Origin: Escherichia phage A5-4
DNA: 64,000 nucleotides
Sequence record: OP744025
Reading direction: 5' to 3' (one strand)
Shown here: positions 6,571-49,582 of the stretch, one piece after another
Position numbering within the stretch: the first letter of the stretch is position 1
Layout: every line of letters starts with the position of its first letter
The notes under the pieces: generated by a model
The model's database searches: none
Told to the model about the DNA's origin: nothing
Seen by the model: only the letters and a program-made list of their open reading frames with translations
Made by a program: the position numbers and the translations under genes

Positions 6571-6595
6571 TCAAGAACATTAAAAAGGGTACAAA

Positions 6596-6871
6596 ATGTT
6601 ACAGCTTAACGCCAAATTAGACAAAGAAATCACTGAGTTTTGGGATATGGTAGTGGCTACAGATGTTGACGGTGTAGCAAGTCCTTACCTCAATAACATT
6701 GAGTATCATAATGTTGCAGCTATGAATGCAGAATACGCAGAAGAAGGCGGCGCGGATAAGTTTGCTAAAAGCAACGGTTTCACTGATGCTAACGACATGA
6801 TGCAATCAGTTTTGTGGCAAGCCCAGGAAGATTTTGAAGAAAAAACTCTTGAATTCGCCAGACGTTCATAA
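6596..6871 (+). CDS. hypothetical protein
   Basis: ORF track; aaaaagggtacaaaATG. Confidence 0.55.
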   Translation: MLQLNAKLDKEITEFWDMVVATDVDGVASPYLNNIEYHNVAAMNAEYAEEGGADKFAKSNGFTDANDMMQSVLWQAQEDFEEKTLEFARRS

Positions 6872-6926
6872 TAGAATAATCAAACGGGCCGAAAGGCCCA
6901 CTAATTGACCTAACAGGATTAACATC

Positions 6927-7196
6927 ATGAATCGCATCGACCAGCTTAAAGTAGTTCAGCATATGGCTTACCGTATCCTTGAAGTTCAGAAAGGGAGCAA
7001 AAAAGAAGTATGTGAGAAGGCTTATAAGGTATTCAGCCACAAAGCTGATGATTGGAAGTTGCAGAAAGTAAAAAAGGCCGATATCCTGGGATACCTTGAA
7101 GAAGAGATCCGCATTGCAGACCAAAAACAGATTCGTCGTGATGAAGCAGAACATAACCAGGCCTGGCAAGAATGGTTTAAAGGCTACACTAAGTAA
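6927..7196 (+). CDS. hypothetical protein
   Basis: ORF track. Confidence 0.55.
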   Translation: MNRIDQLKVVQHMAYRILEVQKGSKKEVCEKAYKVFSHKADDWKLQKVKKADILGYLEEEIRIADQKQIRRDEAEHNQAWQEWFKGYTK

Positions 7197-42823: not shown

Positions 42824-43425
42824 GATTCTCTCTCCAAAATAAATTCAGCAATCGATGCCCAATCGCTAGTTACCAAGTCGTAACATCCGATCTCTTCTTC
42901 ATCTTGACTGAAGGGTGTATCATACTTGATTTTTACTACCTTGTCACTAAATTGATTCAAAAATTTATTACGATCATCAATGATGTAATCACCCGAAACT
43001 CCAGCCTTGTACTTTGTAGCATAAAAACCACACCCGTCTGTTCCATTTTCAAGGTCCAGGTTAGGGAAGTGTCGCTTCAAGAAACGAACCTTACTGCTAA
43101 AATGACCTTTCTTGCAATAAGAAACAAACCGAATAGGGAATCCTGCGGCATGTAACTTGTTGATTGCATCTACCGCTCCCGCAATAGGGAACATCTTATC
43201 ATACAAGAAAGGATCTTCCCAATAATCATACGGAGGGATAGCCTTCTTACAGCGATCAGGGAAGTACCGAGAAAGATTGTAATCAAAATACCCATTCTCG
43301 CTAATGTCCTTTTCCATAAGGTCAGAATCAGCCTCCATATTATAGATGCTTTCCATCCAGTGCAACCAAGGCCATCCAGAATCAACGATAGTTAAGTCAA
43401 CATCCACAATGATCGCTTTTTTCAT
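42820..43425 (-). CDS. HAD-superfamily hydrolase (nucleotidase-like)
   Basis: N-terminal IIVDVDLTIVD (DxDxT) motif. Confidence 0.55.
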   Translation of the reverse strand: MKKAIIVDVDLTIVDSGWPWLHWMESIYNMEADSDLMEKDISENGYFDYNLSRYFPDRCKKAIPPYDYWEDPFLYDKMFPIAGAVDAINKLHAAGFPIRFVSYCKKGHFSSKVRFLKRHFPNLDLENGTDGCGFYATKYKAGVSGDYIIDDRNKFLNQFSDKVVKIKYDTPFSQDEEEIGCYDLVTSDWASIAEFILERES

Positions 43426-44122: not shown

Positions 44123-45217
44123 TTACAGAATGTTTGCCAGCGTTTTCTTCATCGCTGCCTTCTCGCGAACATTCTGACGATCTCGTGCACAAGAACCACA
44201 TTCTTGACAACGATAAATCTTGAACTTAGACAAGAACGTTACTGCTGACTTACCTTCCTCAATAACCAAGTCGTCACTACCACAACGAACACAACGCATT
44301 GCCGTCTGATCTTTGTGGAACAATGCAATGTTCGGATGTTTACGCATGAAAGGTCGTACAGTCAGATACAGTTCTTCCAGCGTTGGAATATCACCAATGT
44401 TATATTCTTCCATCTCTTCAAATGCGGTTGGGTCACCTTCAACACAACGTCGCCACAGACTGAAACCTTCGTGCGACAGCTTACGACTATCAAGTTCAAA
44501 ATAGTTACATGCTGCTTCAAGTGCATTTGAAGGAAGAGAGAAAGCTTCTTTCAGTGCAGCCAATGTATCGATCGTAATGTAAGGACTTGGTGGTTGCATA
44601 CCGTAATATGCGAAACGCTGATTTGCCCAACCACGGTCAAAGCGAGCATTATGTGCGATGAAGATATCACATTCATCCAGAACTTTCCACAGGTCTTCGA
44701 TCAACTTACGATCTGACTGGTGATCTCGTGCAAACTCTTCTGGATAATCCGTCAGCTTACGGCTGAAGATCGACGGGTTGTGCAACCACTTACCAGCAAA
44801 TGTCAGCATGTACGGTTCCATAATTACCTGCTTCGGTGCAATGAACTGTTTAAATCGTCCAAACGAATATGCAACAGAAGGAGATGTTTCAACGTCACCA
44901 AGGAAAACTTTAGCACCTGGGTTCTGCTCTTTGATCTTTTCAATGAAATCTTTTTGAATCTTAGCAACAGGTTCACCACCCGACTCTTTCTGCTGCATAT
45001 ATTCTGCATAGTTTTCGTAATCTTCATACGCCGGAGTGATTTCAAGGAGTTCTTTAACGCTTGAAACATCATTCTTTTCAATTTCACGACGGATCATATT
45101 ACGAACCGTGGATTCCTGAGACTCTTTACCCAATTGGCGAGCTACTTCGCGCTGAGACAGACCGTGTTTCATCAGTTGCAGAACTTGTTCAACAGTAAAA
45201 GTTACTTTATTAGTCAC
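44123..45217 (-). CDS. DEDD-family 3'-5' exonuclease with N-terminal HTH and C-terminal zinc ribbon
   Basis: Exo motifs FLGDVETSP, IAHNARFD, YNIGDIPTLEELY; C-terminal CVRCGSDD...CQECGSC. Confidence 0.55.
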   Translation of the reverse strand: MTNKVTFTVEQVLQLMKHGLSQREVARQLGKESQESTVRNMIRREIEKNDVSSVKELLEITPAYEDYENYAEYMQQKESGGEPVAKIQKDFIEKIKEQNPGAKVFLGDVETSPSVAYSFGRFKQFIAPKQVIMEPYMLTFAGKWLHNPSIFSRKLTDYPEEFARDHQSDRKLIEDLWKVLDECDIFIAHNARFDRGWANQRFAYYGMQPPSPYITIDTLAALKEAFSLPSNALEAACNYFELDSRKLSHEGFSLWRRCVEGDPTAFEEMEEYNIGDIPTLEELYLTVRPFMRKHPNIALFHKDQTAMRCVRCGSDDLVIEEGKSAVTFLSKFKIYRCQECGSCARDRQNVREKAAMKKTLANIL

Positions 45218-45227
45218 TAAAAACTCC

Positions 45228-45473
45228 TTATTTAAAAAATTCGATTACATCGGCAACAGCAAAGTCACGGATATCTTGTTTATCTACATCATACGCTTTC
45301 ATAAACCACTGTTCGCCACGATGATACGGCGATTCACCATACCACATCACTGGCGTTCCAGTTACAGTACGATAACCACACTCACCTTTCCAATTGCGGT
45401 AATAAAACCGCAAGGTTGGTAAACCGTAGGTGTTATGGTCAACTTCTTGACTCATACAAATAACCCTCCTCAA
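45228..45473 (-). CDS. hypothetical protein
   Basis: ORF track. Confidence 0.5.
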   Translation of the reverse strand: MRRVICMSQEVDHNTYGLPTLRFYYRNWKGECGYRTVTGTPVMWYGESPYHRGEQWFMKAYDVDKQDIRDFAVADVIEFFK

Positions 45474-46017
45474 GTTTATCGATAAACGCTTTCACATAAA
45501 GAGTTATCATCTCTCCTTTATCCAAACCCTCATCGATAACTACATTGTACCTCAATAAAGCGTTCGTTGCAATTGTTTCTTTCTTTAATCTCTTCAAATA
45601 TTTTTTCAGGTCAGCAACAATCTCACCATGAAACTTTCTTGAAGAGTAATCCCTTTCGAGATAGTCAGCCATTCTACGCAGAACTTCACTCATTGTCAAG
45701 TCTGTTTTATCTTCCATGTGCTTAGACCAAAGTTTTTGTACACCACCTTCGAAAAGGTTCAGTGTGCTTCCAATAACACCTCTGACCTTTCCGTCAAAGT
45801 GATCATGGTCTAAACAAGGCTTCTCCATAACTTCACCCAGTATAGCACAAACTCCTTGTTGGTCAAGCAATATTTCATCACGATATTTTGCTATTTCTTT
45901 TGACCCACTTACCCAAAGATCCTTATTTAGTTTCACACGGATAGGTGTAGTCGCCTTATCCTTTGCTGTGAATAGAGGCTTCTTTGACCGCCGCTTCCTC
46001 ACTCTCGGTACTCGCAT
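45439..46017 (-). CDS. endonuclease VII-like protein
   Basis: CLDHDHFDGKVRGVIGSTLNLFEG parallels T4 endo VII HLDHDH...GKVRGLLCNLCNAAEG but the second Cys pair is missing. Confidence 0.5.
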   Translation of the reverse strand: MRVPRVRKRRSKKPLFTAKDKATTPIRVKLNKDLWVSGSKEIAKYRDEILLDQQGVCAILGEVMEKPCLDHDHFDGKVRGVIGSTLNLFEGGVQKLWSKHMEDKTDLTMSEVLRRMADYLERDYSSRKFHGEIVADLKKYLKRLKKETIATNALLRYNVVIDEGLDKGEMITLYVKAFIDKLEEGYLYESRS

Positions 46018-46624
46018 GTACTCCCTCCAAGGCTAAAGCCATTAAGAACTCACCATGTGTTGGTTCAAGAGGGTTTTCAAAATACTCTTCCATTCCGAAA
46101 CGATAAAGTGACATTGGGAAGTTTATACTACTAAACAAGCTGTTGTCAACATTATTTTTAAATTCCGGTGGGACGTTCGTATCAAATTCCCTAAAGAATT
46201 CAGATCGACTAGAGTTTATAAAAACCCTTAGAGCATTATCAAAAATTGGATTACCTTTTTGCTTAGTCAGATAAAGCAATTCTTTTAGCGAAGCCTTATC
46301 AGAAACAGACTTAAAAGAATATCCACTAATAATGATCTCGTCAAAACACATACCTCTAACTTTTTGCCAAAAAGACCACTGTGCAGAACTGATCGTCTGA
46401 ATGTGCATGTTCAGCTTAGACCGTTCATTAAACAGGTTTATATCGTAACCACTACGATCTTTCTGATAAGAACCAAACCCCAAGCTATTTGCAGTGTGCT
46501 TCAGTTTAGCAATGAAATCCCCCCTTTCGAGGGTATTCCAACAGATCACTAATTTCTTACTTTGGTAAAACTCTTCCGATTCGTATCGTTCAATAACCGT
46601 TTCGTTCAAGGTAGCATCTCCCAA
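45956..46624 (-). CDS. hypothetical protein
   Basis: ORF track; overlaps the neighbour so the true start may be internal. Confidence 0.45.
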   Translation of the reverse strand: MGDATLNETVIERYESEEFYQSKKLVICWNTLERGDFIAKLKHTANSLGFGSYQKDRSGYDINLFNERSKLNMHIQTISSAQWSFWQKVRGMCFDEIIISGYSFKSVSDKASLKELLYLTKQKGNPIFDNALRVFINSSRSEFFREFDTNVPPEFKNNVDNSLFSSINFPMSLYRFGMEEYFENPLEPTHGEFLMALALEGVHASTESEEAAVKEASIHSKG

Positions 46625-47168
46625 TTAAGTAGGCATCTGCAAGGTCTGTAGATCCACCGTTCTTACCCGTCTTTGAATATCCGGCTAAAAACCCAGGCTG
46701 CATCAACTCGCACACCTTCATCATCTGATCTTTATCCATTTTAATTTTTTCCATCTTTGTACCTTTTGCATTCATCACTTCTTGTTCTTCACCAGGTAAC
46801 TTACCTCGCGCCCAAGATTTAACGGATGTTGGTGCAATTGTGTGTATGTTGTCCATACTATACCCATCTCGAAGTAGTGTCAACTGAATACAGAAAAATA
46901 ATCCTGCAAGATCCCTTGTCGCATTACCAGCAGAGCCGAAACTCAAAGACTCCAATACGATCTTCTCAACATTAAAAGATTCACAAATATCTGCAATGTG
47001 TCTAGAGATGTATGCCATCTGCTCGACAGGGTTGTCAAATCGAATCTGCCAGTCCTTGGCATTTGCAGATCCGGTGGTTTTTAATACCTCTTTAAAGATC
47101 GGTTCATTACCGTCAAAAACTACACATGCACAAGAAGCCATACTCTGATCGATGGATAAAATTTTCAC
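46590..47168 (-). CDS. RuvC-like Holliday junction resolvase (RNase H fold)
   Basis: N-terminal KILSIDQS, KIVLESLSFGS and C-terminal DLADAYLIG fit the RuvC catalytic pattern. Confidence 0.5.
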   Translation of the reverse strand: MKILSIDQSMASCACVVFDGNEPIFKEVLKTTGSANAKDWQIRFDNPVEQMAYISRHIADICESFNVEKIVLESLSFGSAGNATRDLAGLFFCIQLTLLRDGYSMDNIHTIAPTSVKSWARGKLPGEEQEVMNAKGTKMEKIKMDKDQMMKVCELMQPGFLAGYSKTGKNGGSTDLADAYLIGRCYLERNGY

Positions 47169-47476
47169 GCTGATTCCCCTTCTTCGGTATTATCAAGATA
47201 ATGATACTGGTCGATTAAGAACACATAGTTCTTTACTTCTCCGTCCATGTAAACCATAAAAGTTACATATTTCTCATCATAGAACGGATCACCAACAACA
47301 TAGATCTGGCAGATAGAATCAACACGTTTGTCAAACCACTGGATTCGCCAAGGCTCCTCAATCATAGTCCAAGGTTCTTCAATCTTGTAGACCTGGCGCT
47401 TTGCGCCAGGAACGAGTGCTGCACGAATTTCGTCAGCGATCATAACATCATCAAAACTCTCAGAAAAACCCGACAT
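47165..47476 (-). CDS. hypothetical protein
   Basis: ORF track. Confidence 0.5.
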   Translation of the reverse strand: MSGFSESFDDVMIADEIRAALVPGAKRQVYKIEEPWTMIEEPWRIQWFDKRVDSICQIYVVGDPFYDEKYVTFMVYMDGEVKNYVFLIDQYHYLDNTEEGESA

Positions 47477-48585
47477 TAAATACCTACCCGTTTTAAAGTT
47501 GAGGCTAATGTTGTCTTATCATTTTCTGTACGCTTCATATAAACACACTGGAAAATGACAGAAGCCCACTGACCCGCCGAAAACTTACGATGATTCCCTA
47601 AGTGGTCTGTATATTCAACACCCTCAGGAAACCACTTCTTATACTGATCAATAATAGCTAACCACATACTCTTCTCGTCTGCACAAGGGGAGATGACCTG
47701 GAAAGCCGATGTTTCACCAAAGCGAAGACCCTCGAAGGTTTGATATGGTTTAACGTTATCCGCTGCATCACCAAATAGCATTTGGTAACCGAAGAATTTC
47801 TTACCCCAACCTTTTACCTTACCAGACTCCATCCAGATCTCACCCATAGAATCATCGATCAACCAAAGTTCAGGATGTTTCCATGTACGCTCTGTTGAGT
47901 CACGCATTGTGTTAAACAACAAAGAAGGAACCTGGACCTGATCCTTATCGAATGATGCCACAATATGACTAAACTTTCCAGTCTTCCGATAATTTAAATA
48001 TCCTTTATATCCAAGGATCGATAAATAATCATCTGCCTCAATACCATCCACAATGATCGCACCATACTTCTGCTGAACATATCGACGAGTCTCCCCAAGC
48101 AACAAAGGACGTAAAGTATCTTCACGGTTACCCTTATAGACCTCGGGGGTCGGGAGTGCAAGACGGAAGTTACCACTCCCACCTAAAACACCAAGCCCGT
48201 TTGCTGATCCTACGTGCTCAAGAATAGCATTGATCTTAATCTTCAATAAGTGAAGACAGTTCTCAACTGGTTCTGGAGTTTGCTTTTCAATGATCTCGAA
48301 ATCATCACGAGTCCACGGAGTAAATTCTTTTCCGCGAGCAACCGCTTTTGCTTCCATATTAATGTTTTGGTCTTTTAACCACCCACCAACAACATTCTTT
48401 TGGCGACCCCAGAACTCTGTTCGATTTTTAAACTCTTTCTCTCGGCCTGTTTCTTTGTGCCGAGCAATGATCGTTCGCTTCTCTGCACCTGCCGCAGCCA
48501 CGTATGCTGTCTGGTCAAGATCCAGAGCTACTACAACATTATCTTCTACAATGCCGGACCAATCTTTTACTTTAGGATATCCCAT
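47476..48585 (-). CDS. rnh: RNase H / flap endonuclease (T4 rnh-like 5'-3' exonuclease)
   Basis: VVALDLDQTAYVAAA and GIEADDYLSIL parallel T4 RNase H ICLIDFSQIALSTAL and YEADDHIAVL. Confidence 0.55.
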   Translation of the reverse strand: MGYPKVKDWSGIVEDNVVVALDLDQTAYVAAAGAEKRTIIARHKETGREKEFKNRTEFWGRQKNVVGGWLKDQNINMEAKAVARGKEFTPWTRDDFEIIEKQTPEPVENCLHLLKIKINAILEHVGSANGLGVLGGSGNFRLALPTPEVYKGNREDTLRPLLLGETRRYVQQKYGAIIVDGIEADDYLSILGYKGYLNYRKTGKFSHIVASFDKDQVQVPSLLFNTMRDSTERTWKHPELWLIDDSMGEIWMESGKVKGWGKKFFGYQMLFGDAADNVKPYQTFEGLRFGETSAFQVISPCADEKSMWLAIIDQYKKWFPEGVEYTDHLGNHRKFSAGQWASVIFQCVYMKRTENDKTTLASTLKRVGI

Positions 48586-49079
48586 TATAACTCCTTACCG
48601 TGATTTTCATGAAAGCCGTATTTAATCTCTGCTGCTTTTCTTGCAGCAATTGCATCCTCTTTATCTTCGAAGCGTCCTAGGTATACTCTAACACGATTTA
48701 CAGTTATAGATGCAAGCCATTTTTGCTCTTTTTCCCTCCACATGACCCCTGTGTATCCACTTTTATTACGAGAACTCTTCTTGTTGTTTCTCATATTGTC
48801 TATCTGAGATACCATACGAAGATTACTCATCCTGTTATCCCAAGGTACGTGGTTTATATGGTCAATTACCTTATTGTCCGGTATTTCTCCATTGTTAATT
48901 TCCCACGCTACACGATGACCGAGATGAAGAACGCCATCTAACCATATGTGTATATAACCCCTTTTCTTATTTCTTTTTCCTGCAACGTCACCAGGATAAA
49001 TACCATTATGTCTTCTAACTTTCCAGTACATAACCCCAGTTTCTTGATCGTAAATAAGATAATCATGCCAATTTACCAT
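48585..49079 (-). CDS. HNH homing endonuclease with AP2 DNA-binding domain
   Basis: HNH motif HLGHRVAWE...IDHINHVPWDNRMSNLR; AP2-like GYTGVMWREKEQKWLASITVNRVRVYLGRFEDKEDA. Confidence 0.7.
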   Translation of the reverse strand: MVNWHDYLIYDQETGVMYWKVRRHNGIYPGDVAGKRNKKRGYIHIWLDGVLHLGHRVAWEINNGEIPDNKVIDHINHVPWDNRMSNLRMVSQIDNMRNNKKSSRNKSGYTGVMWREKEQKWLASITVNRVRVYLGRFEDKEDAIAARKAAEIKYGFHENHGKEL

Positions 49080-49582
49080 CAGAAAGCCTCGCCGTAATCT
49101 TCGTCTTCTTTAACTTCTTTTACTGGTCGCTTGAATTTGAAATCTTTACCCATATATTCATACAAATAATCAATATTCAAAGACCATTCTTGCTTACTTC
49201 TTTGTCGCCACAATGCCGCAGCTTGCATAATGTATTCTTCAGCAGCCTTCTTGTCAACACCGTTAACTTTCATAAAGTGTCGTATTGCACGAGCCATGTT
49301 ACCAGTTGCTTGAGCACGACCGATGTGTTTTACTTCATGGCAAGGAGGGCATAAAGCAATCACGCCTCGTAACACAACTTCACTATTAACAAAGTCCCAC
49401 ACTTCGTGGGCCTCTACCGGATGCTTACGACCGTTCCCGCCTTTTCCACCACAAACTTCACAAGTGTAGTTGGCCTCTTGATAACATTTACGACGAACTT
49501 TGTCCCATCCCGCTTGGGTAAGGTAAGATCGAAGGTTGTTGTCCCAAGCTGTGCTTGGGATTAATTCGATAGTTAATTTCAT
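49079..49582 (-). CDS. zinc-binding HNH-like nuclease (tentative)
   Basis: Cys/His pattern CEVCGGKG...HPVEAHEVW...CPPCHEVKH. Confidence 0.35.
   Translation of the reverse strand: MKLTIELIPSTAWDNNLRSYLTQAGWDKVRRKCYQEANYTCEVCGGKGGNGRKHPVEAHEVWDFVNSEVVLRGVIALCPPCHEVKHIGRAQATGNMARAIRHFMKVNGVDKKAAEEYIMQAAALWRQRSKQEWSLNIDYLYEYMGKDFKFKRPVKEVKEDEDYGEAF

Follow-up and report, generated by a model that had tools for sequence, protein, structure and literature searches.

Why would a phage carry genes for two different nucleases of the kind that resolves DNA junctions, and are both of them intact? This question is raised by a stretch of 64,000 nucleotides from Escherichia phage A5-4 (sequence record OP744025), the whole of which is called the window here. 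On its minus strand, a gene for a RuvC-like protein is followed by a gene for a protein similar to endonuclease VII (EndoVII or gp49) of phage T4, and each gene encodes 192 amino acid residues at the place given by the original prediction, which had been made from the DNA letters alone. That prediction took the two proteins for members of junction-resolvase-type families, and no profile search in this study moved either of them to an unrelated family. It also described the EndoVII-like protein as degenerate and possibly altered in function, which our results do not support. We consider it probable, with moderate confidence and with the identities of both proteins counted in, that the two are functional, metal-dependent and structure-selective DNA endonucleases of unrelated folds that share the processing of branched intermediates. 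By analogy with characterized enzymes, the EndoVII-type protein would act as a broad debrancher and the RuvC-type protein as a four-way-junction resolvase.

The EndoVII-Like Protein

The EndoVII-like protein matched Pfam PF02945 (Endonuclease_7) with 29.5 bits and an E value of 7.2e-7, where the cut-off is 23.6 bits, and phrog_423 ("endonuclease VII") with an E value of 1.3e-31. By sequence, its only relative in the PDB was T4 endonuclease VII, with an E value of 4e-6 for the single protein. A 20-sequence profile matched T4 gp49 with an E value of 4e-13 and was aligned over residues 8–149 of the 157 residues of the T4 protein, an extent that shows a full-length gp49-type protein. The monomer model obtained with AlphaFold2 had a predicted local distance difference test (pLDDT) value of 83 and contained five helices after the His-Me finger. 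In a Foldseek search with this model, T4 EndoVII (1e7l) was the only significant match (probability 1.00, 156 aligned columns). Beyond an isolated HNH module, the protein is thus predicted to possess the full gp49-type architecture, including the C-terminal helical region.

The three core motifs named in the original prediction, C68-LDHDH73, G76-KVRG80 and N87-LFEG91, were all present (Table 1). The equivalents of the T4 catalytic residues, D70, H71, H73, R79, N87 and E90, were also all found and were invariant among close homologs. Residue roles and the conservation of R54 in the T4 enzyme are documented (PMC6083498). The wider family was compared in an alignment of 152 sequences, which comprised the window protein, T4 gp49 and 150 representatives of clusters at 50% identity, the best of those that the family profile retrieved from 1.84 billion proteins. 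The catalytic D, H, H and N did not vary across these 150 representatives, whereas E at the position of E90 (E65 of T4) alternated with L, I, V or M.

The 192-residue long form of the protein is supported by the strong Shine-Dalgarno sequence GGAGGG that precedes its ATG. In the record of phage A7_1 (3440..3937), the coding sequence (CDS) of this gene was begun 27 codons late, despite the strong GGAGGG before the upstream ATG. Residues 1–34 form a highly basic tail with 13 Lys/Arg that is predicted to be disordered. The tail is kept in the EndoVII proteins of Septuagintavirus- and Certrevirus-type phages (homologs P0004, P0006, P0008, and P0019), but neither T4 gp49 nor the rV5-type proteins have it. 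It could serve as an additional element for binding DNA or a partner.

The Missing Zinc Site

Of the four Cys ligands of the T4 zinc site, three are gone from the window protein and only C57, which corresponds to C23 of T4, is left. The original prediction had recorded the loss of the second Cys pair, where C58 and C61 of T4 correspond to G83 and L86, and this was correct but understated, as C26 is deleted too. In rV5- and PVP-SE1-type relatives, C57 is further replaced by Asp. Such losses were widespread. No more than one Cys was found at the four ligand positions in 129 of the 152 aligned sequences, while 16 sequences had CCCC and five had CCHC. Both knuckles were also missing from 65 of the 80 EndoVII loci identified in IMG/VR. 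The Cys4 site is a mark of T4 gp49 and not of the PF02945 family, and it has been pointed out in general that many His-Me fingers have no zinc knuckle (PMC5714182).

The ratio of nonsynonymous to synonymous substitution rates (dN/dS) of the EndoVII-like gene, calculated against UPEC06 and A7_1, was 0.03. Given this ratio, the 129 sequences with no or one Cys and the 65 loci without both knuckles, the loss of zinc is no sign of decay, and the zinc-less EndoVII proteins constitute a large natural subfamily rather than decaying copies. The description of the window protein as degenerate, with a possible change of function, is not supported, its catalytic residues being invariant as well. An alternative zinc site was also considered, consisting of C68, the Cys of "GKCRG" and the Cys of "SQC" in rV5-type proteins. 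It was ruled out for the window protein, which has only C68 of the three.

The RuvC-Like Protein

The RuvC-like protein matched phrog_159 ("RuvC-like Holliday junction resolvase") with an E value of 1.4e-32. Searches of PDB sequences with the protein and with its 33-sequence profile found nothing, so a comparison of folds was needed. The AlphaFold2 model had a pLDDT value of 96 and a predicted template modeling (pTM) score of 0.91. In a Foldseek search with this model, PDB ranks 1–14 were all occupied by RuvC, with E values from 6e-9 to 2e-5, probabilities of 1.00 and target-normalized TM scores of 0.64–0.80. The matched structures were the RuvC proteins of D. radiodurans, T. thermophilus, E. 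coli, P. aeruginosa, and Lactococcus phage bIL67, and RNase T and other RNase H-fold proteins ranked far below them. The RNase-H-fold, RuvC-like pattern that the original prediction had read from the sequence is in line with these matches.

D7, E73, D175 and D178 were invariant in all 33 RuvC-like sequences, which span the Vequintavirinae-like and the PF02075-bearing groups. In local hidden Markov model (HMM) and HH alignments, E73 was aligned with the residue that we take to be E66 of E. coli RuvC. The remaining three residues were matched to D7, D138 and D141 of E. coli RuvC by inspection of motif positions. Taken together, the model and the alignments predict a nuclease of the RuvC-family fold with a four-carboxylate tetrad.

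The N-terminus of the protein, MKILSIDQS, agrees with those of its homologs. Its GTG start codon overlaps the TGA stop codon of the upstream gene of 103 codons (GTGA), suggesting translational coupling of the two genes. In the UPEC06 record (6591..7142), the CDS of the RuvC-like protein was begun at an internal ATG, which would delete the catalytic D7. The protein is 100% identical to A54_178 of Septuagintavirus sv54, and the dN/dS of its gene was 0.04.

Distribution of the Gene Pair

The RuvC-like protein was found by tblastn in 274 phage records. When a fusion of the RuvC-like and EndoVII-like proteins was used as the query, at least 80% of it was covered by a single place on one strand in 255 records. 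The records with the pair include rV5 and other Escherichia vequintaviruses, PVP-SE1- and Seunavirus-type phages, Certrevirus (CR3, CR8, and PBES 02) as well as phages of Klebsiella, Erwinia, Proteus, Enterobacter, and Aeromonas, and these phages have genomes of ~115–150 kb. In most relatives from IMG/VR, the EndoVII ORF (open reading frame) begins between -66 and +71 nt from the end of the RuvC ORF, and the two ORFs abut or overlap. The tandem is kept across relatives whose proteins have diverged to identities of 33–45%. Moreover, the dN/dS of the two genes was 0.03–0.045, and both are under strong purifying selection. A RuvC-like gene followed by an EndoVII-like gene is an old module of two genes that has been conserved in Vequintavirinae and in related myoviruses of ~115–150 kb. 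In one IMG/VR contig of 136 kb (L012/L097, IMGVR_UViG_3300045988_163358), the two genes are ~12 kb apart; thus, the tandem can be broken without loss of either gene.

Among 224 jumbo phages, the distributions of EndoVII-like and RuvC-like proteins were described as "nearly complementary" (PMC7824862). Carrying both types of resolvase is therefore somewhat unusual for phages in general, as the original prediction had proposed, but it is the norm in the lineage of the window phage, as the 255 of 274 records demonstrate. Some GenBank records already label the two neighbors "RuvC-like Holliday junction resolvase" and "endonuclease VII". The paper on Septuagintavirus mentions EndoVII (PMC11370258) and that on KEC4 mentions a RuvC-like resolvase (PMC12942863). 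Our literature searches found separate mentions of the two genes and no paper discussing the pair or zinc-less EndoVII. Both genes belong to known families and have already been annotated in a published phage genus, and the conserved tandem and the zinc-less subfamily are undiscussed points of modest interest.

Proposed Roles of the Two Nucleases

If T4 gp49 and bacterial and phage RuvC are a guide, both enzymes would be Mg-dependent homodimers that act on the branched DNA arising from recombination-dependent replication. Resolvases of the EndoVII family form domain-swapped homodimers that cut Holliday junctions and other branched DNA, while RuvC resolvases are homodimers that nick four-way junctions symmetrically. 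The EndoVII-type enzyme may be a debrancher of broad specificity and a mismatch nuclease, which would rid concatemers of Y-junctions, Holliday junctions and heteroduplex loops before and during headful packaging. The RuvC-type enzyme may resolve true four-way junctions in recombination and fork restart. The long-term retention of both would imply roles that overlap and yet are not identical. T4 endonuclease VII is implicated in mismatch repair and in the removal of branches before packaging (cited in PMC11370258), and phage RuvC acts on varied branched substrates (PMC3864405).

Some points weigh against this proposal. The RuvC-like protein matched no Pfam family at E ≤ 0.1 and no NCBIfam model, and it stayed below the threshold of the Pfam RuvC family; its link to Pfam is only transitive, through homologs with identities of 31–37% (E values from 1e-8 to 1e-16) that carry PF02075. 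The model of the EndoVII-like protein is least confident at residues 81–100 (pLDDT 72–77), around the lost knuckle. The T4 mutants C23S and C61S have lost both activity and DNA binding (PMC6083498), which makes the loss of zinc ligands a matter of consequence and a Cys-less fold hard to explain. Finally, phage RuvC is promiscuous, and the roles given here to RuvC and EndoVII could be swapped or largely redundant.

Plain redundancy is a possible but rather unlikely explanation. Both enzymes would then do the same debranching or Holliday junction job and be kept as back-ups, for example so that a host factor which inhibits or senses one enzyme is not fatal to the phage, or because their optima differ between hosts or conditions. 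T4 EndoVII and phage RuvC are both described as junction nucleases of broad specificity (PMC3864405 and PMC5714182). In addition, 40 zinc-less EndoVII loci have no RuvC-like gene within 6 kb, and RuvC-like genes exist without EndoVII within 6 kb; therefore, either enzyme seems able to suffice alone. However, true redundancy seldom lasts as long as is implied by the tandem in 255 of 274 records, the divergence of its proteins and the low dN/dS of both genes. The near-complementary distribution of the two families in jumbo phages argues against it as well. A dedicated partnership is unlikely. Here, the zinc-less EndoVII proteins (at least ~130 clusters at 50% identity) would be a distinct and uncharacterized subfamily that folds and binds DNA without the zinc knuckle on which T4 gp49 depends. 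Co-evolution with a RuvC-type protein as dedicated partner would have made them, in Vequintavirinae-like phages, part of an obligate debranching system of two nucleases, whose members would have substrate classes of their own or even form a complex, and neither of which alone would support packaging.

It is also improbable, and a little more so, that the zinc-less EndoVII has shifted from junction resolution to nicking of mismatches and heteroduplexes, degradation of host DNA or an accessory role in packaging through its basic tail, leaving the RuvC-like protein as the only resolvase. Its substrate preference may have changed. The loss of three of four zinc ligands, together with the T4 mutations at C23 and C61 that abolish DNA binding (PMC6083498), favors such a shift, as do the clade-specific, disordered and basic N-terminal extension of ~34 residues and the adjoining RuvC-like gene. 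The equivalent of E65 is also hydrophobic in many zinc-less relatives, though not in the window protein. However, the catalytic residues and the C-terminal region aligned with gp49 are all retained. Moreover, the zinc-less form is in the majority in this branch of the family and occurs also where no RuvC-like gene lies within 6 kb, 121Q- and RaK2-type jumbo phages being among the examples. A RuvC-like gene is directly upstream in 25 of the 65 zinc-less IMG/VR loci, and the other 40 are those without one within 6 kb. A RuvC-like gene was nearby in none of the 14 IMG/VR loci with both knuckles. One RuvC-paired relative (L009) retains both CxxC knuckles, so pairing is independent of the loss of zinc. 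The idea that zinc loss is tied to pairing with RuvC was rejected on these counts and on L009. These data argue against an EndoVII that was freed to degenerate or to change its function by the arrival of RuvC.

It is very unlikely that the RuvC-like protein is not a junction resolvase but a different nuclease with the RNase H fold, for instance an RNase H that removes primers or a nuclease for host DNA. Besides the lack of a direct match to Pfam RuvC, several records annotate it as "RNaseH" or "ribonuclease H". It also has two insertions, at approximately residues 33–46 and 122–145, the second of which is modeled as a beta-hairpin; both were found only in the Vequintavirinae-like clade and are absent from the PF02075-bearing homologs. 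However, RuvC proteins take all of the 14 best places in the structural comparison, far ahead of RNase T and other RNase H-fold proteins, the full tetrad is invariant and the family grades continuously into members with PF02075. In addition, a FEN-type 5'-3' exonuclease that could remove primers is already encoded two genes upstream.

Finally, a heteromeric RuvC-EndoVII "resolvasome" is scarcely probable: it would explain the fixed order of RuvC and then EndoVII and the ORFs that overlap or abut in most relatives, and the RuvC-like insertions or the basic tail of EndoVII could serve as its interface, but both families are homodimers, an ORF of 217–222 residues is tolerated between the genes in the clade of the window phage, and the genes are ~12 kb apart in L012/L097. 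Two further ideas were dropped. An origin in defense systems was abandoned as PADLOC gave no match for either nuclease. Nor was the EndoVII-like gene taken for a homing endonuclease or mobile element, since its syntenic position is the same across over 250 phages, unlike that of the neighboring HNH genes.

The Intervening ORF and the Gene Neighborhood

The original prediction had placed the two nuclease genes side by side. They are indeed neighbors on the same strand, but an ORF of the same strand sits between them and overlaps both (Table 1). It encodes 222 residues if it starts at the TTG at 46624 and 217 residues if it starts at the TTG at 46609, which is preceded by GGGAG and is the more likely start. 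No match to the ORF was found in Pfam, NCBIfam, PADLOC or PDB, and it matched phrog_12410 (function unknown). It was found only in the Septuagintavirus- and Certrevirus-type clade and is absent from rV5-type relatives, in which the nuclease genes abut. The identities between its versions from different clades were 27–30%, while those of the flanking nuclease genes were 62–79%; the ORF is fast-evolving.

Between positions 43000 and 50000, the window is 95–98% identical in nucleotide sequence to Escherichia phages A7_1, A73, W70, UPEC06, and LTH01, all of which are classified as Vequintavirinae. On this comparison and the identity of its RuvC-like protein to A54_178, the window belongs to a Septuagintavirus (Vequintavirinae) myovirus of E. 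coli. From ~10 kb to 58 kb of the window, nearly all genes are on the minus strand, and both nucleases are encoded within a tightly packed minus-strand operon for replication, recombination and nucleotide metabolism (Table 1). The deoxynucleoside monophosphate (dNMP) kinase gene is followed by genes for a putative deoxyribonucleotidase and then thymidylate synthase, according to the UPEC06 annotation. Ribonucleotide reductases (phrog_84 and phrog_86) are encoded ~5–9 kb from the nuclease genes. No second copy of the RuvC-like or EndoVII-like gene was found in a search across the window.

Table 1. Positions in the window of the nuclease genes, their motifs and the neighboring genes.
Feature	Position	Strand	Remarks
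RuvC-family (RNase H fold) structure-selective endonuclease (predicted)	46590..47168	minus	192 aa, GTG start
Shine-Dalgarno-like GGGGA	47175..47179	minus	6 nt upstream of the RuvC-like GTG; sequence read directly
RuvC-like D7 codon, first catalytic carboxylate	47148..47150	minus	invariant column
RuvC-like insertion, ~residues 33–46	47031..47072	minus
RuvC-like E73 codon, second catalytic carboxylate	46950..46952	minus	invariant; aligned with presumed E. coli RuvC E66
RuvC-like insertion, ~residues 122–145	46734..46805	minus
RuvC-like D175-LA-D178 codons, third and fourth catalytic carboxylates	46635..46646	minus	invariant columns, motif DLADAY
T4 endonuclease VII-family (His-Me/beta-beta-alpha-metal) nuclease (predicted), without structural zinc site	45439..46017	minus	192 aa
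Shine-Dalgarno GGAGGG, strong	46023..46028	minus	5 nt upstream of the EndoVII ATG at 46017; sequence read directly
EndoVII basic tail, residues 1–34	45916..46017	minus
First zinc knuckle remnant, C57-A-I-L60	45838..45849	minus	C57 = T4 C23; T4 C26 falls in a 4-residue deletion; from alignments to T4 gp49
C68-L-D70-H71-D72-H73	45799..45816	minus	metal ligand D70 (= T4 D40), catalytic H71 and H73 (= H41, H43); columns invariant or nearly so
G76-K-V-R79-G80, second beta-strand of His-Me finger	45778..45792	minus	R79 = T4 R54; R79 and G80 invariant
Second zinc knuckle positions, G83-S-T-L86	45760..45771	minus	T4 C58 -> G83, T4 C61 -> L86, both non-Cys
N87-L-F-E90-G91	45745..45759	minus	metal ligand N87 (= T4 N62), E90 (= E65); N87, E90 and G91 invariant in close homologs
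Intervening ORF, function unknown	45956..46624	minus	217–222 aa; phrog_12410
FEN-type 5'-3' exonuclease	47476..48585	minus	phrog_107; two genes upstream of the RuvC-like gene
103-aa gene, function unknown	between the FEN-type exonuclease and RuvC-like genes	minus
81-aa ORF, function unknown	45228..45473	minus	phrog_3715; 35 nt overlap with 3' end of the EndoVII gene
3'-5' exonuclease/"DNA polymerase exonuclease subunit"	44123..45217	minus	phrog_403
dNMP kinase	beyond the 3'-5' exonuclease gene in the same run		phrog_139

Several other features of the window were observed. The 81-residue ORF downstream of the EndoVII-like gene had a weak, sub-threshold likeness to WYL domains (Pfam E value 0.0011; PADLOC WYL E value 0.0034). 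A gene for a free-standing homing-type endonuclease with HNH_3 and AP2 domains (48585..49079, minus strand) lies between the FEN-like exonuclease gene and a second HNH gene (49079..49582). The closest relatives UPEC06 and A7_1 lack its segment of ~500 bp at that position, and the segment is therefore an insertion polymorphism. At 12846..16377 on the minus strand, there are three paralogous genes in tandem, of 380, 414, and 410 aa, and the PHROGs that they match are annotated as "regulator of chromosome condensation" (RCC1-like repeats; phrog_4219).

Comparison with Known Systems

The main practical yield of this study is a set of corrections: the pair is typical of its lineage, the EndoVII-like protein is not degenerate and two deposited annotations are truncated at their N-termini. 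If the roles of the two nucleases are separate, rV5-like phages would offer a natural system in which the resolution of Holliday junctions in recombination could be split from the debranching for packaging, both of which T4 does with one enzyme. The BASEL collection contains several such phages, which are amenable to genetics. Moreover, if an EndoVII in nature indeed works with no structural zinc, it would show another way to stabilize a His-Me finger.

Similar to T4 gp49 (PDB 1en7, 1e7d, and 2qnc), the EndoVII-like protein of the window has an N-terminal helix, a His-Me finger and a C-terminal helical region. The identities between the two proteins are ~24–28%, and the Cys4 site is found only in the T4 protein. 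In addition, a nearly invariant Cys, C68 in the window protein, replaces H38 of T4. Different from the T4 protein, the window protein has the extra basic tail of ~34 residues, and its gene is paired with one for a RuvC-like protein, of which T4 has none.

The RuvC-like protein shares the RNase H fold and the four catalytic carboxylates with RuvC of phage bIL67 (PDB 4ktw) and with bacterial RuvC (1hjr, 4ld0, 7xhj, and 6lw3). However, its identities to the solved RuvC structures are only 13–15%, and it differs from them in its two clade-specific insertions. No RuvB-type partner ATPase was found among the neighboring genes that were scanned, and viral RuvC is usually without such a partner (PMC7824862).

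The EndoVII His-Me core has been recruited to another function in F-CphI, a homing endonuclease of cyanophage S-PM2 (PMC6083498). In F-CphI, however, which is a site-specific homing enzyme, the motif occupies the C-terminal end and the Cys motifs are kept, whereas the EndoVII-like protein of the window is gp49-like over its full length.

Another close counterpart is the gene pair of rV5 (DQ832317: 74910–75506 and 75566–76027), an orthologous module in which gene order and strand are the same and whose proteins are 37–45% identical to those of the window. Similar to the window protein, the rV5-type EndoVII proteins (L013 and L104) are without the classical Cys4 site; different from it, they have Asp at the position of C57 and no basic N-terminal tail. 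Finally, the two nuclease genes of rV5 are 60 bp apart, while in the window phage an extra ORF is inserted between them.

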